Positions 3,523-41,539 of a stretch of DNA of 64,000 nucleotides are shown here, piece after piece (position 1 is the first letter of the stretch; each line of letters opens with the position of its first letter). The stretch lies in the NCBI RefSeq assembly GCF_041248615.1, contig NZ_CP158426.1, one strand, 5' to 3'. The notes beneath the pieces were generated by a model. It saw only the letters and a list, made by a program, of their open reading frames with translations, was not told the DNA's origin and did no database searches. This stretch comes from Escherichia coli (lineage in GTDB: Bacteria > Pseudomonadota > Gammaproteobacteria > Enterobacterales > Enterobacteriaceae). The position numbers were made by a program, and so were the translations under genes.

Positions 3523-4725
3523 ATGCGCATCCTTCACACCTCAGACTGGCATCTCGGCCAGAACTTCTACAGTAAAAGCCGCGAAGCTGAACATCAGGCT
3601 TTTCTTGACTGGCTGCTGGAGACAGCACAAACCCATCAGGTGGATGCGATTATTGTTGCCGGTGATGTTTTCGATACCGGCTCGCCCCCCAGTTACGCCC
3701 GCACGTTATACAACCGTTTTGTTGTCAATTTACAGCAAACTGGCTGTCATCTGGTGGTACTGGCAGGAAACCATGACTCGGTCGCCACGCTAAATGAATC
3801 GCGCGATATCATGGCGTTCCTCAATACTACCGTGGTCGCCAGCGCCGGACATGCGCCGCAAATCTTGCCTCGTCGCGACGGGACGCCAGGCGCAGTGCTG
3901 TGCCCCATTCCGTTTTTACGCCCACGTGACATTATTACCAGCCAGGCGGGGCTTAACGGTATTGAAAAACAGCAGCATTTGCTGGCGGCTATTACTGATT
4001 ATTATCAACAACACTATGCCGATGCCTGCAAACTGCGCGGCGATCAGCCTCTACCCATCATCGCCACGGGACATTTAACAACTGTGGGTGCCAGTAAAAG
4101 TGATGCTGTGCGTGACATCTATATTGGCACGCTGGACGCGTTTCCGGCACAAAACTTTCCACCAGCCGACTACATCGCGCTCGGGCATATTCACCGCGCG
4201 CAGATTATTGGCGGCATGGAACATGTTCGCTATTGCGGTTCCCCCATACCACTGAGTTTTGATGAATGCGGTAAGAGTAAATATGTCCATCTGGTGACAT
4301 TTTCAAACGGTAAATTAGAGAGCGTGGAAAACCTGAACGTACCGGTAACGCAACCCATGGCGGTGCTGAAAGGCGATCTGGCGTCGATTACCGCACAGCT
4401 GGAACAGTGGCGCGATGTATCACAGGAGCCGCCTGTCTGGCTGGATATCGAAATCACTACTGATGAGTATCTGCATGATATTCAGCGCAAAATCCAGGCA
4501 TTAACCGAATCATTGCCTGTCGAAGTATTGCTGGTACGCCGGAGTCGTGAACAGCGCGAGCGAGTGTTAGCCAGCCAACAGCGTGAAACCCTCAGCGAAC
4601 TCAGCGTCGAAGAGGTGTTCAATCGCCGTCTGGCACTGGAAGAACTGGATGAATCGCAGCAGCAACGTCTGCAGCATCTTTTCACCACGACGTTGCATAC
4701 CCTCGCCGGAGAACACGAAGCATGA
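3523..4725 (+). CDS. sbcD: DNA repair nuclease SbcD (Mre11 family)
   Basis: ORF track 3481-4725; start placed at ATG 3523 ([13 protein letters not shown], giving 400 aa); phosphoesterase motifs DWH, GDVFD, GNHD; stop overlaps sbcC start (ATGA). Confidence 0.95.
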
Positions 4726-7700
4726 AAATTCTCAGCCTGCGCCTGAAAAACCTGAACTCATTAAAAGGCGAATGGAAGATTGATTTCACCCGCGAGCCGT
4801 TCGCCAGCAACGGGCTGTTTGCCATTACCGGCCCAACCGGTGCGGGGAAAACCACCCTGCTGGACGCCATTTGTCTGGCGCTGTATCACGAAACTCCGCG
4901 CCTTTCTAACGTTTCACAATCGCAAAATGATCTCATGACCCGCGATACCGCCGAATGTCTGGCGGAGGTGGAGTTTGAAGTGAAAGGTGAAGCGTATCGC
5001 GCGTTCTGGAGCCAGAATCGGGCGCGTAACCAGCCGGACGGTAATTTGCAGGTGCCACGCGTAGAGCTGGCGCGCTGCGCCGATGGCAAAATTCTCGCCG
5101 ACAAAGTGAAAGATAAGCTGGAACTGACGGCGACGTTAACCGGACTGGATTACGGGCGCTTCACCCGTTCGATGCTGCTTTCGCAGGGGCAATTTGCTGC
5201 CTTCCTGAATGCCAAACCCAAAGAACGCGCGGAATTGCTCGAGGAGTTAACCGGCACTGAAATCTACGGACAAATCTCGTCGATGGTGTTTGAGCAGCAC
5301 AAATCGGCCCGCACAGAGCTGGAGAAGCTGCAAGCGCAGGCCAGCGGCGTCGCGTTGCTCATGCCAGAACAAGTGCAATCGCTGACAGAAAGTTTGCAGG
5401 TACTCACTGACGAAGAAAAACAGTTACTTACCGCGCAGCAGCAAGAACAACAATCGCTAAACTGGTTAACGCGTCTGGACGAATTGCAGCAAGAAGCCAG
5501 CCGCCGTCAACAGGCCTTGCAACAGGCGTTAGCCGAAGAAGAAAAAGCGCAACCTCAACTGGCGGCGCTCAGTCTGGCCCAACCGGCACGAAATCTTCGT
5601 CCGCACTGGGAACGCATCGCAGAACACAGCGCGGCGCTGGCGCATACTCGCCAGCAGATTAAAGAAGTAAATACTCGCTTACAGAGCACAATGGCGCTTC
5701 GCGCGAGCATTCGCCACCACGCGGCGAAGCAGTCAGCAGAATTACAGCAGCAGCAACAAAGCCTGAATGCCTGGCTACAGGAACACGACCGCTTCCGTCA
5801 GTGGAACAACGAACTGGCGGGTTGGCGTGCGAAGTTCTCCCAACAAACCAGCGATCGCGAGCATCTGCGGCAATGGCAGCAACAGTTAACCCATGCTGAG
5901 CAAAAACTTAATGCGCTTGCGGCGATCACATTGACGTTATCCGCCGATGAAGTTGCTAGCGCCCTGGCGCAACATGCTGAGCAACGCACGCTGCGTCAGC
6001 GCCTGGTCGCGCTGCATGGACAGATTGTTCCCCAACAAAAACGCCTGGCGCAATTACAGGTCGCTATCCAGAATGTCACGCAAGAACAGACGCAACGTAA
6101 CGCCGCACTTAACGAAATGCGCCAGCGTTATAAAGAAAAGACGCAGCAACTTGCCGATGTCAAAACCATTTGCGAGCAGGAAGCGCGTATTAAAACGCTG
6201 GAAGCCCAGCGCGCGCAGTTACAGGCGGGTCAGCCTTGTCCACTTTGTGGTTCCACCAGCCACCCGGCGGTCGAGGCGTATCAGGCGCTGGAACCGGGCG
6301 TTAATCAGGCCCGGCTATTAACGCTGGAAAAAGAAGTGAAAAAGCTCGGCGAAGAAGGTGCGGCGCTACGTGGGCAACTGGATGCATTAACGAAGCAGCT
6401 TCAGCGCGATGAAAACGAAGCGCAAAGCCTCCGACAAGATGAGCAAGCACTTACTCAACAATGGCAAGCCGTCACGGCCAGCCTCAATATCACCCTGCAG
6501 CCACAGGACGATATTCAACCGTGGCTAGATGAACAAGATGAGCACGAACGCCAGCTGCGGTTACTCAACCAACGGCATGAATTACAAGGGCAGATTGCCG
6601 CGCATAATCAGCAAATTATCCAGTATCAACAGCAAATTGAACAACGCCAGCAGCAACTCTTAACGGCATTGGCGGGTTATGCACTGACATTGCCACAGGA
6701 AGGTGAAGAAGAGAGCTGGTTGGCGACGCGTCAGCAAGAAGCGCAGAGCTGGCAGCAACGCCAGAACGAATTAACCGCGCTGCAAAACCGTATGCAGCAG
6801 CTGACGCCGATTCTGGAAACGTTGCCGCAAAGTGATGAACTCCCACACAGCGAAGAAACTGTGGCGCTGGAAAACTGGCGGCAGGTTCATGAACAATGTC
6901 TCGCATTACACAGCCAGCAGCAGACGTTACAGCAACAGGATGTTCTGGCGGCGCAAAGTCTGCAAAAAGCCCAGGCGCAGTTTGACACCGCGCTACAGGC
7001 CAGCGTCTTTGACGATCAGCAGGCGTTCCTTGCGGCGCTAATGAATGAACAAACACTAACCCAACTGGAACAGCTCAAGCAGAATCTGGAAAACCAGCGC
7101 CGTCAGGCGCAAACGCTGGTCACTCAGACAGCTGAAACGCTGGCACAGCATCAGCAACACCGACCTGACGGGTTGGCTCTCACTGTAACGGTGGAGCAGA
7201 TTCAGCAAGAGTTAGCGCAAACTCACCAAAAGTTGCGTGAAAACACCACCAGTCAGGGCGAGATTCGCCAGCAGCTGAAGCAGGATGCAGATAACCGTCA
7301 GCAACAACAGACCTTAATGCAGCAAATTGCTCAAATGACGCAGCAGGTTGAGGACTGGGGATATCTGAATTCGCTAATAGGTTCCAAAGAGGGCGATAAA
7401 TTCCGCAAGTTTGCCCAAGGACTGACGCTGGATAATTTAGTCCATCTCGCTAATCAGCAACTTACCCGGCTGCACGGGCGCTATCTGTTACAGCGCAAAG
7501 CCAGCGAGGCGCTGGAAGTCGAGGTTGTTGATACCTGGCAGGCAGATGCGGTACGCGATACCCGTACCCTTTCCGGTGGCGAGAGTTTCCTCGTCAGTCT
7601 GGCGCTGGCACTGGCGCTTTCAGATCTGGTCAGCCATAAAACGCGTATTGACTCGCTGTTCCTTGATGAAGGTTTTGGCACGCTGGATAGCGAAACGCTG

Positions 7701-10226: not shown

Positions 10227-10350
10227 GGTACTCTCCTTATTTTTTTCAATATCAATAGCGTAGAGACGGACAACCGGATTGGCAATGCAAGGCCGCCGAC
10301 AATTCGTTATCATGCCCGCTAAATTTAACGACAAGGCCGTGGAAATTATC

Positions 10351-11262
10351 ATGCTGTGGTTCAAAAATTTAATGGTTTACCGTCTTAGCCGCGAGATTTC
10401 GCTGCGTGCAGAAGAGATGGAAAAACAGCTAGCCTCGATGGCATTTACCCCATGCGGCAGCCAGGACATGGCGAAGATGGGCTGGGTTCCTCCGATGGGA
10501 TCGCACAGCGATGCGTTAACGCACGTTGCCAATGGTCAAATTGTTATCTGCGCGCGCAAAGAAGAAAAAATCCTCCCGTCTCCGGTGATTAAACAGGCGC
10601 TGGAAGCGAAAATCTCCAAACTGGAAGCGGAACAGGCGCGTAAGCTGAAGAAAACCGAAAAAGATTCGCTGAAAGACGAAGTGCTGCATTCTCTGCTGCC
10701 GCGTGCTTTCAGCCGTTTTAGCCAGACAATGATGTGGATCGACACGGTTAACGGTTTGATTATGGTGGACTGCGCCAGTGCCAAAAAAGCGGAAGATACG
10801 CTGGCACTGCTGCGTAAAAGCCTGGGGTCGTTACCGGTTGTACCATTGAGCATGGAAAACCCGATTGAACTGACGCTGACCGAATGGGTACGTTCCGGCA
10901 GCGCGGCACAGGGCTTCCAGCTGCTTGATGAAGCCGAGCTGAAATCGTTGCTGGAAGATGGCGGCGTGATCCGCGCGAAGAAACAAGATCTGACCAGCGA
11001 AGAGATCACCAACCACATTGAAGCCGGAAAAGTGGTGACTAAACTGGCGCTCGACTGGCAGCAGCGCATTCAGTTTGTGATGTGCGACGATGGTTCGCTC
11101 AAGCGTCTGAAGTTCTGCGACGAGCTGCGCGATCAAAACGAAGATATCGACCGTGAAGATTTCGCCCAGCGTTTTGATGCCGATTTCATCCTGATGACTG
11201 GTGAACTGGCAGCGTTAATTCAAAACCTGATTGAAGGATTAGGTGGCGAAGCACAACGTTAA
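10351..11262 (+). CDS. rdgC: Recombination-associated protein RdgC
   Basis: ORF track 10279-11262; start placed at ATG 10351 ([16 protein letters not shown], giving 303 aa). Confidence 0.95.
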
Positions 11263-36475: not shown

Positions 36476-37672
36476 ATGAAAACCTGGATATTTATCTGTA
36501 TGTCCATAGCAATGTTGCTATGGTTTTTAAGTACGCTAAAACGTAAACCCAGTCAAAAGAAAGGCTGTATTGACGCCATTATACCTGCTTATAACGAAGG
36601 CCCGTGTCTGGCACAGTCACTGGATAATCTGCTGCGTAACCCTTATTTTTGCCGGGTAATTTGCGTAAACGACGGCTCCACGGACAATACCGAATCGGTC
36701 ATGGAGGAAGTCAAACGCAAATGGGGCGACCGCTTTGTTGCCGTCACGCAAAAAAATACCGGTAAAGGTGGTGCGCTGATGAATGGCCTCAATTACGCCA
36801 CCTGCGACCAGGTTTTTTTAAGTGATGCCGACACCTATGTTCCGCCCGATCAAGACGGAATGGGCTATATGCTGGCAGAAATTGAGCACGGTGCCGATGC
36901 CGTAGGCGGCATTCCCTCTACTGCGTTGAAAGGCGCGGGTCTGTTACCACACATCCGCGCGACCGTAAAGTTGCCGATGATTGTTATGAAGCGCACGCTA
37001 CAGCAGCTCGTGGGCGGCGCACCGTTTATTATCAGCGGTGCCTGCGGGATGTTCCGTACTGATGTATTGCGTAAGTTCGGTTTCTCGGATCGTACTAAAG
37101 TCGAAGACCTTGATCTCACCTGGACATTGGTGGCAAACGGCTATCGTATTCGGCAGGCGAATCGCTGCATCGTATACCCACAGGAATGCAACAGCCCGCG
37201 TGAGGAATGGCGTCGCTGGCGGCGTTGGATTGTGGGCTACGCGGTCTGTATGCGCCTGCATAAAAGACTTTTATTTAGCCGCTTCGGTATCTTCAGTATA
37301 TTTCCTATGCTGTTGGTTGTGCTTTATGGCGTTGGGATTTATCTCACTACCTGGTTTAATGAATTCATCACCACCGGGCCGCATGGTGTGGTGTTGGCAA
37401 TGTTTCCGCTTATCTGGGTCGGCGTAGTTTGTGTTATTGGTGCTTTTAGCGCCTGGTTTCATCGTTGCTGGTTGTTGGTGCCTTTAGCGCCGCTTTCCGT
37501 TGTGTATGTATTATTAGCTTATGCCATCTGGATTATTTATGGACTTATTGCCTTTTTTACTGGACGCGAACCTCAGCGCGACAAACCCACCCGCTATTCC
37601 GCACTGGTGGAAGCGTCAACCGCTTATTCCCAACCTTCTGCTACAGGAACTGAAAAACTATCTGAAGCTTAA
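36476..37672 (+). CDS. yaiP: Membrane-embedded family-2 glycosyltransferase YaiP (synthase-type)
   Basis: 398-aa ORF; GT2 motifs IPAYNEG, VNDGSTDNT, LSDADTY and a QxxRW-like EEWRRWRRW; one N-terminal and several C-terminal hydrophobic helices. Confidence 0.85.
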   Translation: MKTWIFICMSIAMLLWFLSTLKRKPSQKKGCIDAIIPAYNEGPCLAQSLDNLLRNPYFCRVICVNDGSTDNTESVMEEVKRKWGDRFVAVTQKNTGKGGALMNGLNYATCDQVFLSDADTYVPPDQDGMGYMLAEIEHGADAVGGIPSTALKGAGLLPHIRATVKLPMIVMKRTLQQLVGGAPFIISGACGMFRTDVLRKFGFSDRTKVEDLDLTWTLVANGYRIRQANRCIVYPQECNSPREEWRRWRRWIVGYAVCMRLHKRLLFSRFGIFSIFPMLLVVLYGVGIYLTTWFNEFITTGPHGVVLAMFPLIWVGVVCVIGAFSAWFHRCWLLVPLAPLSVVYVLLAYAIWIIYGLIAFFTGREPQRDKPTRYSALVEASTAYSQPSATGTEKLSEA

Positions 37673-38231
37673 TGTTAAAGAGAAAAACATTCAGATTGCA
37701 GACCAGGTAATTATTGATGAAACTGCAGGTGAAGTTGTTATCGGCGCGAATACCCGTATTTGTCATGGTGCCGTTATTCAGGGTCCGGTAGTGATTGGCG
37801 CAAACTGCTTGATAGGTAATTATGCGTTTATTCGTCCTGGCACAATAATCAGCAATGGCGTAAAAATTGGTTTTGCCACCGAAATTAAAAATGCGGTTAT
37901 TGAAGCGGAAGCAACGATTGGTCCGCAATGCTTTATCGCCGACTCGGTAGTTGCAAACCAGGCATATTTGGGCGCACAAGTACGTACCAGTAATCATCGT
38001 CTGGATCAACAGCCCGTGTCTGTTCGAACTCCAGAGGGAATTATCGCTACCGAATGCGATAAATTAGGTTGTTATATCGGGCAGCGTTCACGCCTTGGCG
38101 TACAAGTTATTATTTTGCCTGGGCGAATTATTTCCCCGAACACGCAACTTGGCCCGCGCGTGATTGTAGAACGTAATTTACCTACCGGAACTTATTCACT
38201 CCGACAAGAACTTATCCGTACAGGAGATTAA
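37521..38231 (+). CDS. yaiX: Hexapeptide-repeat (left-handed beta-helix) acyltransferase YaiX, intact
   Basis: 236-aa ORF with repeated [LIV]-G-x-x-x-x hexapeptides (VIGANTRICHGAVIQGPVVIGANCLIGNYAFI...); start uncertain because the ORF overlaps the yaiP 3' end by 152 nt in another frame; stop 1 nt before the yaiO ATG. Confidence 0.75.
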   Translation: MPSGLFMDLLPFLLDANLSATNPPAIPHWWKRQPLIPNLLLQELKNYLKLNVKEKNIQIADQVIIDETAGEVVIGANTRICHGAVIQGPVVIGANCLIGNYAFIRPGTIISNGVKIGFATEIKNAVIEAEATIGPQCFIADSVVANQAYLGAQVRTSNHRLDQQPVSVRTPEGIIATECDKLGCYIGQRSRLGVQVIILPGRIISPNTQLGPRVIVERNLPTGTYSLRQELIRTGD

Positions 38232-38232
38232 A

Positions 38233-39006
38233 ATGATAAAACGGACGTTATTAGCGGCAGCAATTTTTAGCACATTGCCCGCTTATGCCGGGTTAACTTC
38301 CATTACCGCGGGCTACGATTTTACCGATTATTCTGGCGATCATGGCAACCGTAATTTAGCGTATGCTGAACTGGTGGCGAAAGTTGAAAACGCAACGCTG
38401 CTTTTTAATCTTTCCCAGGGGCGTCGTGATTATGAAACTGAACATTTCAATGCCACTCGCGGTCAGGGTGCGGTCTGGTATAAATGGAATAACTGGCTGA
38501 CAACCCGAACGGGTATTGCCTTTGCGGATAATACGCCGGTCTTTGCCCGCCAAGATTTTCGTCAGGATATTAACCTGGCACTGTTGCCAAAAACGCTTTT
38601 CACGACCGGTTATCGCTACACGAAATATTACGATGATGTCGAAGTCGATGCCTGGCAAGGCGGCGTATCACTCTATACTGGCCCGGTGATCACCAGCTAT
38701 CGCTATACCCATTATGACTCCAGCGATGCAGGTGGTAGTTACAGCAATATGATTTCCGTGCGTCTGAATGACCCGCGCGGCACTGGTTATACGCAACTAT
38801 GGCTAAGCCGCGGAACAGGTGCTTACACCTATGACTGGACGCCAGAAACACGCTACGGCAGCATGAAGAGCGTCAGTTTGCAACGTATTCAACCGCTGAC
38901 TGAGCAACTTAATCTCGGGCTGACGGCAGGTAAAGTGTGGTACGACACCCCAACCGATGATTATAACGGTCTGCAACTTGCAGCCCATCTGACCTGGAAA
39001 TTCTGA
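38233..39006 (+). CDS. yaiO: Outer-membrane beta-barrel protein YaiO
   Basis: 257-aa ORF with signal peptide MIKRTLLAAAIFSTLPAYAG, alternating aromatic/hydrophobic beta-strands, C-terminal ...HLTWKF; RBS AGGAG upstream. Confidence 0.88.
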   Translation: MIKRTLLAAAIFSTLPAYAGLTSITAGYDFTDYSGDHGNRNLAYAELVAKVENATLLFNLSQGRRDYETEHFNATRGQGAVWYKWNNWLTTRTGIAFADNTPVFARQDFRQDINLALLPKTLFTTGYRYTKYYDDVEVDAWQGGVSLYTGPVITSYRYTHYDSSDAGGSYSNMISVRLNDPRGTGYTQLWLSRGTGAYTYDWTPETRYGSMKSVSLQRIQPLTEQLNLGLTAGKVWYDTPTDDYNGLQLAAHLTWKF

Positions 39007-39114
39007 TTCCTTCTGCCGCCCGCTATCCGGGGCGGCCTTCCCTGCCGATTAGCCCCACCCCCTTTCCTCTTTGTTTTCCGACCACATTCACCGGATAAAT
39101 TTTATTCTCCAGTG

Positions 39115-39168
39115 TTATATACTATAGGGGGTATGCATTGACATATAGAATACCCCCCTATAGTATAT
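39115..39168 (+). promoter_or_regulatory. frmRAB promoter with FrmR operator-like inverted repeat
   Basis: Arms ttatatactatagggggtat (39115-39134) and ataccccccctatagtatat (39150-39168) are inverted repeats (5 G versus 6 C); they flank a consensus -35 TTGACA (39138-39143) with TAGTAT 17 bp downstream (39161-39166). Confidence 0.6.
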
Positions 39169-39192
39169 TGCATGCAGATGATGAGGTGCGAA

Positions 39193-39468
39193 ATGCCCAG
39201 TACTCCGGAAGAGAAGAAAAAGGTCCTTACTCGAGTTCGTCGTATTCGGGGGCAGATTGATGCTCTGGAACGGTCGCTGGAGGGTGATGCCGAATGCCGT
39301 GCCATACTCCAACAGATCGCTGCCGTTCGGGGCGCGGCTAACGGGCTGATGGCAGAAGTGCTTGAAAGCCATATCCGGGAAACGTTTGACCGAAATGACT
39401 GCTACAGCCGCGAAGTCAGCCAATCCGTTGACGACACTATTGAACTGGTTCGTGCCTATCTTAAATAG
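39193..39468 (+). CDS. frmR: Formaldehyde-responsive repressor FrmR (CsoR/RcnR family)
   Basis: ORF track 39172-39468; start placed at ATG 39193 ([30 protein letters not shown], giving 91 aa). Confidence 0.93.
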
Positions 39469-39472
39469 CTGA

Positions 39473-40612
<1,140 letters not shown>

Positions 40613-40705: not shown

Positions 40706-41539
40706 ATGGAACTCATTGAAAAACATGCCAGCTTTGGCGGCTGGCAAAATGTGTATCGGCATTATTCCCAATCACTGAAATGTGAAATGAATGTCGGCGT
40801 CTATCTCCCACCAAAAGCCGCAAGTGAAAAATTGCCGGTGTTGTACTGGCTTTCAGGGCTGACTTGCAACGAGCAGAATTTCATTACTAAATCGGGGATG
40901 CAGCGTTACGCGGCGGAGCACAACATTATTGTTGTTGCGCCGGACACCAGTCCGCGAGGCAGTCATGTCGCAGATGCTGACCGTTACGATCTCGGGCAAG
41001 GTGCCGGGTTTTACCTGAACGCAACGCAAGCGCCGTGGAATGAACATTACAAAATGTATGACTATATCCGCAACGAGCTGCCGGATTTAGTGATACAACA
41101 TTTTCCGGCAACGGCCAGAAAGTCTATCTCAGGTCATTCTATGGGCGGGCTGGGCGCACTGGTGCTGGCGTTACGTAATCCAGATGAATATGTCAGCGTC
41201 TCGGCGTTTTCGCCCATTGTCTCCCCATCGCAAGTACCGTGGGGACAGCAAGCCTTTGCCGCATATCTTGGTGAAAATAAAGAGGCCTGGTTGGATTACG
41301 ATCCGGTGAGCCTTATTTCACAAGGTCAACGCGTTGCGGAAATCATGGTTGATCAGGGGTTGAGTGATGATTTTTACGCAGAACAGCTGCGGACTCCAAA
41401 TCTTGAAAAGATCTGCCAGGAGATGAATATCAAGACGTTAATCCGTTATCACGAGGGTTATGATCACAGCTATTATTTTGTCTCCAGTTTTATTGGCGAG
41501 CATATTGCCTACCACGCCAATAAACTGAATATGCGTTAA
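40706..41539 (+). CDS. frmB: S-formylglutathione hydrolase FrmB (esterase D family)
   Basis: 277-aa ORF; serine hydrolase motif GHSMGG. Confidence 0.95.
   Translation: MELIEKHASFGGWQNVYRHYSQSLKCEMNVGVYLPPKAASEKLPVLYWLSGLTCNEQNFITKSGMQRYAAEHNIIVVAPDTSPRGSHVADADRYDLGQGAGFYLNATQAPWNEHYKMYDYIRNELPDLVIQHFPATARKSISGHSMGGLGALVLALRNPDEYVSVSAFSPIVSPSQVPWGQQAFAAYLGENKEAWLDYDPVSLISQGQRVAEIMVDQGLSDDFYAEQLRTPNLEKICQEMNIKTLIRYHEGYDHSYYFVSSFIGEHIAYHANKLNMR

Follow-up and report, generated by a model that had tools for sequence, protein, structure and literature searches.

The window, the 64,000-nucleotide stretch of an Escherichia coli genome analyzed here, carries four genes in the order yaiS, yaiP, yaiX, and yaiO, co-linear on the plus strand. 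The first gene, yaiS (35795–36466, +), is full length, with 223 codons and a GTG start. It encodes a PIG-L/LmbE-type deacetylase (Pfam PIG-L, E 4e-25) that covers positions 4–223 of the 226 in the BshB1 model. YaiS most resembles chitobiose and GlcNAc-malate deacetylases, archaeal diacetylchitobiose deacetylases are its nearest matches of known structure, and no signal peptide is evident by eye. The intact gene is flagged as a pseudogene in the annotation. Within its 3′ part lies a small antisense ORF (36332–36451, −), labeled YkiC or "hypothetical protein" in the RefSeq annotation of isolate NRZ14408 (positions 10333–10452 of that isolate's locus record, L014) and described previously (PMC6001520).

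After a gap of 9 nt, yaiP (36476–37672, +) encodes a 398-aa membrane glycosyltransferase of the GT2 family (Pfam Glycos_transf_2, E 1e-27). Its best NCBIfam match is PgaC_IcaA, at 102 bits and under the cutoff of 422. Over an alignment of 241 aa, YaiP and E. coli PgaC share 29% identity, and the DGSTD, DxD, and ED motifs fall in register. RWRRW of YaiP aligns with QRLRW of PgaC, so the RW of QxxRW is kept but not the Q. The yaiX frame (37521–38231, +), 236 codons to its TAA with a likely start at ATG 37539, overlaps the 3′ end of yaiP (37672) by 152 nt. At the yaiX–yaiO junction (38222–38235, +), the TAA (38229–38231) is followed after 1 nt by the yaiO ATG (38233–38235), and an AGGAG (38222–38226) sits 6 nt upstream of that ATG. 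This layout fits translational coupling, with yaiO putatively translated from its own AGGAG. The last gene, yaiO (38233–39006, +), encodes a 257-aa outer-membrane beta-barrel of the YaiO family (TIGR04390, 184 bits, cutoff 32; Pfam PF19413 is matched too). YaiO had no match among PDB sequences, and all homologs retrieved for it were single-domain proteins of ~260 aa.

The tauA–yaiS intergenic region (35244–35794, +) is AT-rich. GC content is 29% at 35400–35799, and for that reason the operon may not be expressed in culture. The strongest sigma-70-like site in the locus, TTGACA-18-TACAAT at 35546–35575, fits 11 of 12 positions and is a consensus match only. A scan of the locus found fewer promoter-like sites than in shuffled sequence. 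An Rfam scan of 35200–39200 (E ≤ 1) gave no riboswitch or other RNA family, and a terminator scan gave nothing convincing 3′ of yaiO.

The unbroken yaiX and the K-12 allele

The hexapeptide-repeat (LbH) ORF at 37521–38231 runs through the window without interruption. It matches Pfam PF00132 Hexapep (E 5.5e-18, 64.3 bits, cutoff 27) and has 526 homologs at E ≤ 1e-5. Across five E. coli alleles pN/pS is 0.07–0.23 with the yaiP overlap left out; within the overlap the ratio is uninformative, with just 0–4 substitutions. The Pfam match, the homologs, and pN/pS rule out a chance ORF, and yaiX is a real gene. The ratios also show apparent purifying selection on E. coli yaiX alleles in general. The seven copies examined outside K-12 (the window, NRZ14408, isolate 362, and four other alleles) all keep the 236-codon frame open; the records of NRZ14408 and isolate 362 are identical to the window across the segments compared. 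Relative to the common E. coli YaiX, the protein of the window carries S42L, E164Q, and G178E.

The K-12 gene is broken. In NC_000913.3, yaiX (b4579) is annotated as a pseudogene in two pieces, with IS2A (381260..382590) between them. The 1331-bp IS2 lies between codons 99 and 100, antisense to the operon, and GTAAT is duplicated. Comparison of the MG1655, LD27-1, and T177A junctions with the window places the empty target site, GTAAT, at 37816–37820 (+), in codons G99/N100, both of which are invariant. Gene and locus are shared, with yaiP and yaiO on either side, and the two MG1655 fragments are 98.6–98.7% identical to the window in nucleotide sequence, but IS2 splits the K-12 copy while the site in the window is empty. 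The sole IS2 copy of the window lies elsewhere, at 28589–29919 in ehaB/yaiT. MG1655 yaiS in addition has an amber TAG at codon 186 (Q186). K-12 is thus a double mutant for the yaiSPXO operon, yaiX::IS2 plus yaiS Q186amber.

The initial annotation had proposed an IS2A-disrupted yaiX in MG1655, an intact one here in an operon that K-12 has lost, and an IS arrangement that excludes MG1655 as the source. Each point agrees with the sequences: the MG1655 locus is interrupted rather than colinear with the window, none of the four ORFs is interrupted in the window, and K-12 carries IS3B at a different site in yaiT plus IS2A in yaiX. The window is 100% identical to NRZ14408 over 24 kb, and therefore not K-12; identity to MG1655 is ~98.6% in the yaiSPXO genes.

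The same annotation asked how often yaiX is intact. The yaiX region is colinear in 4463 of 5426 complete genomes (82%), a count of region colinearity that bounds the true intact fraction and is not made at the ORF level. The K-12 IS2 junction occurs in 362 of these genomes, and 512 have no match. Intact yaiX is the usual state. Segment 37521–38231 is almost certainly an ordinary, ancestral, unbroken allele, and the K-12 IS2 allele a derived one. Independently of K-12, yaiSPX was also lost from the E. coli B lineage; in a sampled B-lineage expression strain three of the four cassette genes are deleted. With K-12 a double mutant and the B lineage deleted, phenotypes of the cassette cannot appear in standard strains.

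The contrast between an intact yaiX and the IS2-split K-12 gene is already annotated and published, so the finding is in itself ordinary. The locus, called unstudied in the initial annotation, is so only in part. EcoGene 3.0 (2012) recorded that repair of yaiX′ in K-12 leads to YaiP-dependent clumping (PMC3531124), and a 2026 paper described the 236-aa YaiX form and its distribution and tested it (PMC13058169). For yaiP, yaiS, and yaiO, we found no functional work in the literature beyond the EcoGene note. yaiO appears in the literature mainly as a PCR marker. What we add is the conserved cassette, the WW motif and start codon, the comparison with GlmU, E178, the K-12 yaiS amber, and the loss in the B lineage. 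In practice, the finding serves to remind experimenters that K-12 carries two lesions in yaiSPXO. Experiments would be improved by a start placed 5′ of WW, a corrected yaiS pseudogene flag, and recognition of G178E.

The YaiX beta-helix and its altered active site

The AlphaFold2 model of YaiX (pLDDT 84.5) enters a beta-helix near residue 55, and short strands recur from residue ~58 to 225. The protein is predicted to be a left-handed beta-helix and probably a trimer. Its top Foldseek and phmmer matches are the acetyltransferase domain of ST0452, followed by GlmU, LpxD, and QdtC. ST0452 of Sulfolobus tokodaii (PDB 2ggo, 5z09, 5z0a) is the best match in both sequence (phmmer E 3e-21, YaiX residues 68–225) and fold (Foldseek E 4.5e-11, 32–34% identity). 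Unlike ST0452 and archaeal-type GlmU, YaiX has no nucleotidyltransferase domain and falls under the TIGR03992 cutoff (127.9 bits against 292.1, model positions 224–393). The TIGR01173 score is 40.8 against 366.9, and every match in the NCBIfam search was below its cutoff. His308 and Tyr311 of ST0452 stand opposite Pro135 and Phe138 of YaiX in the ungapped phmmer alignment.

The comparison with E. coli GlmU separates what is kept from what is lost. The beta-helix registers align with an hhalign probability of 97.9%. YaiX R105, E121, K123, N158, and K181 correspond to GlmU R333, E349, K351, N386, and K392, and GlmU D388 and G389 also have conserved counterparts. The phosphate-binding basic residues of GlmU (R333, K351, and K392) are thus retained; R105 and K181 do not vary among the homologs, and K123 is conserved in at least 90% of them. 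In contrast, hhalign pairs H363 with P135, Y366 with F138, N377 with Y149, and S405 with V194. YaiX also has a 15-residue hairpin insertion at 163–177 and stands alone, with an N-terminal WW motif and no fused nucleotidyltransferase domain. In GlmU, His363 is the catalytic base. At this position YaiX has Pro, in 81 of 82 homologs, so catalysis, if YaiX is an enzyme at all, may rely on a different base (His159, nearly invariant, is a candidate) or on no base.

The allele of this strain departs from the family at one further position. Codon 178 (38052–38054, +) is GAA (Glu); Gly occupies the position in 77 of 82 homologs, and Glu occurs in the window sequence only. In the hhalign alignment, residue 178 pairs with GlmU G389, which lies in the K392 loop, three positions ahead of K392 itself. 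G178E may impair YaiX in this strain. The initial annotation proposed the strain as a better background for testing the locus; the operon is indeed open, but E178 makes it not obviously the best choice.

A wider version of this concern is that yaiX or the whole operon is cryptic or impaired here, through silencing by the AT-rich upstream region, poor translation, the lineage-specific G178E near the K181 loop, or a combination. The 29% GC upstream of yaiS fits this, as does the lack of a good Shine-Dalgarno sequence at the candidate yaiX starts (also in PMC13058169). However, the exact yaiX allele is found on 443 contigs and so has persisted in a successful lineage, the four genes bear no further lesion, and purifying selection acts on E. 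coli alleles generally. We consider a cryptic or impaired operon rather unlikely.

Loss of the GlmU-type residues could instead mean that the YaiX beta-helix does not catalyze a reaction and serves YaiP as a structural or regulatory partner. Pro replaces the catalytic His, the equivalents of Tyr366, Asn377, and Ser405 are gone, and the Pfam matches that rank below Hexapep are LbH_EIF2B, LbH_GLGC, and GMPPB_C. None of these beta-helix domains is a known acyltransferase. Against this, the counterparts of GlmU R333, E349, K351, N386, and K392 show little or no variation, and a family-specific motif, RTSNHRLD, is almost invariant; together these suggest a ligand site. Some LbH N-acetyltransferases, among them QdtC and WlbB, moreover act without a catalytic base. 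A non-catalytic role appears improbable, and an acyltransferase remains the preferred reading.

The physiological role of yaiX has also been sought in intrinsic multidrug resistance and virulence. Overexpression of a 71-aa K-12 fragment gave tolerance to many drugs and raised lethality in silkworms (PMC13058169). This product corresponds to residues 166–236, begins at an internal GTG (38016), and is a plasmid-expressed fragment of a disrupted gene. The 236-aa form has the weaker effect, native expression is minimal, and the mechanism is unknown by the authors' own account (PMC13058169). With the four-gene context pointing to glycan chemistry, we find such a role quite improbable.

The start codon of yaiX

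The 5′ end of yaiX is less certain than the initial annotation implied. RefSeq (PGAP) starts the gene at CTG 37650 in NRZ14408, isolate 362, and strain 3045, giving 582 bp and 193 aa, while the curated MG1655 start corresponds to the second ATG of the window frame, at 37539. Enterobacterial YaiX homologs likewise begin at the position of ATG 37539. The homolog alignment bears on this choice through an N-terminal WW motif (codons W29–W30, 37605–37610, +), present in all 59 homologs long enough to include the region; 42 of 82 homologs begin MWW, one residue ahead of it. In E. coli the only ATG, GTG, or TTG codons 5′ of W29 are codons 1, 7, and 10. Judged by this alignment, the 193-aa PGAP model loses a conserved motif.

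If the short model were the true gene, the first 129 nt of the 236-codon ORF, from 37521 on, would be nothing but the yaiP 3′ end in another frame, as the three RefSeq records and the low confidence of the model at residues 1–25 (pLDDT <50) might suggest, but the WW conservation, the MWW starts, the few upstream start codons, the curated MG1655 start, and PGAP's own calls of 229–233 aa in Salmonella, Citrobacter, and Enterobacter make this very unlikely. Translation most likely starts at ATG 37539, within the 3′ end of yaiP, to give 230 aa. No candidate start has a clear Shine-Dalgarno sequence ahead of it, and the 2026 study likewise reports a yaiX start without one (PMC13058169). The 134–152-nt overlap raised a programmed YaiP–YaiX frameshift fusion as a further candidate, which we rejected because distant homologs have an ordinary ATG and an overlap of only 14 nt.

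A putative surface-glycan cassette and its relatives

The PIG-L, GT2, LbH, and YaiO order is conserved far beyond this locus and beyond the Enterobacteriaceae, in the same arrangement in six compared loci. The cassette recurs in two soil-metagenome lineages, in Salmonella, on an E. coli island, and on about 50 plasmids, with unrelated flanks, and its carriers include virulence plasmids. This wide conservation and these carriers make the cassette worth testing in natural isolates as a candidate factor for adhesion or aggregation.

The genes suggest a pathway. YaiX, translated from ATG 37539, would act in the cytoplasm, transferring an acyl group from acyl-CoA to a phosphorylated amino-sugar precursor, and YaiS, as a PIG-L deacetylase, would act in the same GlcNAc-type chemistry. 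YaiP, as a PgaC-like membrane GT2 enzyme, would polymerize the sugar or transfer it across the inner membrane. YaiO, in the outer membrane, would pass the product on or anchor it at the surface, where it could cause cell-to-cell clumping. We give this overall picture slightly less than even confidence; the glycan product, the substrate, and the activity within it are all predictions. K-12 clumped after yaiX repair despite the yaiS amber, so YaiS may be dispensable or active when truncated.

A more specific proposal is that yaiSPXO is a compact mobile surface-glycan system for aggregation, built from a PgaC-like synthase, a cytoplasmic PIG-L deacetylase, a GlmU-like beta-helix acyltransferase without its His, and a small YaiO barrel. 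Together, synthase, deacetylase, and acyltransferase would set the N-acyl group of an amino-sugar phosphate, or exchange it, ahead of polymerization, and the YaiO barrel would export the product. We regard this as tentative, and its being correct in full as somewhat doubtful. Such a system would have escaped study because K-12 (IS2 and the yaiS amber) and B (an IS1-associated deletion) lost it independently.

Among known systems, the poly-beta-1,6-GlcNAc operon pgaABCD of E. coli has a similar outline. Each operon has four genes, among them ones for a membrane GT2 enzyme, a deacetylase, and an outer-membrane barrel, and each gives an aggregation phenotype. The parts differ. YaiO has no TPR domain and no detectable similarity to PgaA (BLASTP E 1.3), and YaiS is a PIG-L enzyme, unlike the periplasmic PgaB-type deacetylase. 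The cassette has no PgaD-like gene, and instead has an LbH protein that is absent from pga. The pairing of a GlcNAc deacetylase with an LbH acyltransferase resembles LpxC and LpxD, and LpxD is among the fold and sequence matches of YaiX. YaiS is not of the LpxC type, however, and the LpxD matches are weak; the likeness to LpxC/LpxD is a functional analogy only.

The yaiX locus in the window and in K-12

The initial annotation described yaiX as uninterrupted, and an open frame of 236 codons does span 37521-38231 (+). Its product matches Pfam Hexapep (E 5.5e-18) and has 526 homologs at E<=1e-5. A comparison of five E. coli alleles gives a pN/pS of 0.07-0.23 for the portion outside the yaiP overlap, demonstrating purifying selection. 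On these three grounds the frame is a real gene. The surrounding layout is that of the MG1655 tau-frm region in reversed orientation: tauA (34224-35243, -), followed on the plus strand by yaiS (35795-36466), yaiP (36476-37672), yaiX, yaiO (38233-39006), frmR (39172-39468), frmA (39503-40612), and frmB (40706-41539). The yaiX TAA (38229-38231) is one base away from the yaiO ATG at 38233, and an AGGAG lies at 38222-38226, a junction as would be expected of coupled translation.

MG1655 carries IS2A in this gene, as the initial annotation said. In NC_000913.3, yaiX (b4579) is annotated as a two-fragment pseudogene (380844..381260 and 382591..382872), with IS2A between the fragments at 381260..382590 and insC1 and insD1 on the opposite strand. 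BLAST alignment of the window to the MG1655 region is broken by the IS2 at window 37816-37821, as predicted. The MG1655 junctions run from GGTAAT into TGGATTTGCC and from CCAGTCTA into GTAATTATGCG; the window reads through both as GGTAATTATGCG. GTAAT (37816-37820) is therefore the duplicated target of IS2A, and the window site is empty. The insertion hits codons G99 and N100, the first invariant and the second Asn in 80 of 82 homologs.

The K-12 operon holds two lesions, since MG1655 yaiS (384059-384616) also has a CAG to TAG change at codon 186, leaving 185 aa versus 223 aa in the window. Of 5426 complete RefSeq E. coli genomes, 362 contain a full match to a 200-nt probe spanning the K-12 yaiX/IS2 junction. 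Identical junctions occur in LD27-1 (faeces) and T177A (pig), which are natural isolates from China, so the yaiX::IS2 allele is found beyond laboratory stocks. LD27-1 has the IS2 with an intact yaiS and T177A has both lesions, which suggests that the IS2 insertion came earlier and the amber codon later.

The source strain is not MG1655, as first proposed from the IS arrangement. NZ_LT599825.1 (E. coli isolate NRZ14408) matches window 26000-50000 at 100% identity, while the four yai genes are ~98.5% identical to those of MG1655. A full IS2 copy (28589-29919; 95.5% identity to IS2A) lies inside the ehaB/yaiT autotransporter gene of the window; in K-12 that gene is disrupted by IS3B, at another site. 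The split by IS2A, the empty site, and the open frame together support the reading of an intact yaiSPXO here and a yaiX lost in K-12. The allele in the window is intact. The contrast between intact and IS2-split yaiX is already known from the reference annotation and two papers, so the central idea had been stated and partly tested before.

Retention and loss across E. coli

We searched the 5426 genomes with window 37400-38300. In 4463 of them (82%) at least 80% of this stretch was colinear at a single site, an upper bound for the intact fraction because it counts colinearity and not ORFs. Another 451 genomes gave a partial match alone and 512 gave none. All seven non-K-12 copies examined (window, NRZ14408, isolate 362, strain 3045, CFT073, AR_0104, and O111:H8) keep the 236-codon frame open; NRZ14408 and isolate 362 are identical to the window over the compared segments, and the other four are separate alleles. 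The protein collection also contains rare YaiX variants, frameshifted or internally deleted, each represented by 1-38 members.

A tauA-to-frmR probe revealed further losses of the operon, which are independent of the K-12 allele. These include a clean deletion fusing tauA to frmR, and IS1, ISVsa5, and ISEc20 within the segment in individual strains, placed by annotation and not to the exact site. In strain 23AR1101, ISKpn26 and a deletion leave yaiO as the sole remaining gene. In O157:H7 MB9-1 an unrelated island (response regulator, MASE1 kinase, uhpC, ABC) adjoins tauA. T7Express_LysY, an E. coli B/BL21 derivative, has an IS1 and has lost yaiS, yaiP, and yaiX, with yaiO alone left. Both standard laboratory lineages have lost the four-gene cassette.

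Gene models of yaiX and yaiS

Three starts are in use for yaiX. ATG 37521 (236 aa) is used by KEGG and a 2026 paper (PMC13058169), the base equivalent to ATG 37539 (230 aa) opens the curated MG1655 fragment 1, and PGAP takes CTG 37650 (193 aa) in NRZ14408 and many other strains. In an 82-sequence alignment, all 59 sequences that reach residues 29-30 (37605-37610) have WW there. In the alignment, 42 sequences start as MWW, one residue ahead of it; in soil-metagenome cassettes this ATG gives a 14-nt overlap with the GT2 stop. The E. coli codon at that position is CAC (His), and upstream of W29 ATG, GTG, or TTG occur solely at codons 1, 7, and 10. PGAP starts of Salmonella, Citrobacter, and Enterobacter homologs line up with codon 7. 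In the AlphaFold2 model, residues 1-25 are unstructured (pLDDT <50) and mean pLDDT is 79 over 31-40. From this evidence the 193-aa model, which omits the WW motif, is too short, and the start is most likely ATG 37539, so that yaiX and yaiP would overlap by 134 nt. ATG 37539 is not preceded by a good Shine-Dalgarno, a lack before yaiX also remarked on by the 2026 authors (PMC13058169).

In NRZ14408, isolate 362, strain 3045, LD27-1, CFT073, and O111:H8, yaiS is intact at 223 codons, yet RefSeq/PGAP flags it as "incomplete, missing C-terminus" (window 35795-36205); the truncated K-12 type is annotated as a normal gene. The 223-aa product covers the BshB1 model end to end. We suspect that the mislabelling is caused by a YkiC-like 39-aa ORF annotated antisense across the yaiS 3' end (36332-36451, -). 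Where this ORF is unlisted, in the AR_0104 island and two plasmid records (the plasmid gene table being incomplete), yaiS is called full length. The three annotation corrections gained are the yaiX start, the intact yaiS flagged as a pseudogene, and the K-12 yaiS amber codon. Together with a picture of a mobile cassette lost from both laboratory lineages, they are by-products of value.

A mobile cassette and its possible function

The order PIG-L deacetylase, GT2, left-handed beta-helix protein, YaiO recurs between unrelated flanks in several genomes and plasmids, and the cassette has been kept as one unit. It occurs in two soil-metagenome lineages at ~50% identity, and in Salmonella it adjoins a fimbrial operon. 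In AR_0104 (NZ_CP020116.1, 14401-17607) it sits in an island between tRNA-Asn/cobUST and IS elements, next to ibrAB-like genes (IbrB-like and PAPS-reductase) and IS66 remnants. This is the single yaiX match of that strain, outside tauA-frmR; identity to the window is 96.8% for yaiX, 94% for yaiP, 95% for yaiO, and ~70% for yaiS. CFT073 and Nissle 1917 also have second cassette places. Complete cassettes lie on ~50 E. coli plasmids, KS-NP019_P1 (4204-7402) and pSTEC388_2 (4209-7415) among them; most are conjugative and of IncF type. One IncF plasmid bears cnf2, and one STEC plasmid of this set has a paralogous cassette (61% identity) close to a fimbrial operon. The GC content of the cassette in the window is 41-53%, lower than that of its flanks, with 29% just upstream of yaiS (35400-35799) and 56-59% in the tau genes, which fits horizontal acquisition and makes silencing by H-NS possible.

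YaiX is modelled as a stand-alone left-handed beta-helix. By both sequence and fold it best matches the C-terminal acetyltransferase domain of Sulfolobus tokodaii ST0452 and archaeal-type GlmU, followed by GlmU, LpxD, and QdtC; in an NCBIfam scan every score fell under its family cutoff. When the profile is aligned with that of E. coli GlmU (97.9% probability), R333, E349, K351, N386, D388, G389, and K392 are kept as R105, E121, K123, N158, D162, G178, and K181, and H363, Y366, N377, and S405 are replaced by P135, F138, Y149, and V194. YaiX differs in an extra 15-residue hairpin (163-177), preceded by a nearly invariant motif peculiar to the family, RTSNHRLD (155-162). The sugar-phosphate contacts of GlmU come from R333, K351, and K392, and its general base is H363. 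If these roles hold, YaiX probably binds a phosphorylated sugar with other catalytic chemistry, or is non-catalytic. Residue 178 (38052-38054), aligned with G389 in the K392 loop and three residues before K181, is Gly in 77 of 82 homologs and Glu in the window strain. The exact window allele is on 443 contigs, so G178E is fixed in a lineage and not a sequencing error.

The partners are likewise assigned from sequence. YaiS is a predicted PIG-L deacetylase whose nearest matches are archaeal diacetylchitobiose deacetylases and BshB1, and no signal peptide is apparent by eye. YaiP is a putative membrane GT2 whose best named relative is PgaC/IcaA (29% identity to E. coli PgaC over 241 residues); the two proteins align at the NDGSTD, DxD, and (T/V)ED motifs, and where PgaC has QRLRW, YaiP has RWRRW. 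YaiO is a predicted YaiO-family outer-membrane barrel with no similarity to PgaA.

EcoGene 3.0 (2012) reports that K-12 with a mended yaiX clumps and that this depends on YaiP (PMC3531124). K-12 with repaired yaiX clumped despite the yaiS TAG at codon 186, so YaiS may be dispensable for this phenotype or active when truncated. Overexpression of a W3110 "71-aa YaiX" reportedly conferred multidrug tolerance and silkworm virulence; ampicillin resistance was weaker with the 236-aa form, and 58 KEGG genomes fell into 71-aa, 236-aa, and yaiX-less groups (PMC13058169). The length of the 71-aa product places it at residues 166-236, read from a GTG within the gene at 38016 (window 38016-38231). It is the tail of a gene that has been split, and for that reason the phenotypes seen on overexpressing it may be a poor guide to native YaiX.

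We propose that YaiX would act in the cytoplasm as an acyl-CoA-dependent acyltransferase on an amino-sugar phosphate, and that YaiS would remove an acetyl group in the same pathway. YaiP would polymerise the sugar or transfer it across the inner membrane, YaiO would handle the product at the outer membrane, and the product would promote cell-to-cell sticking. We hold this pathway as a whole to be quite possible, a little short of probable. LpxC and LpxD swap an N-acyl group in lipid A synthesis. By analogy, YaiS and YaiX could be a deacetylase and a beta-helix N-acyltransferase making a comparable swap.
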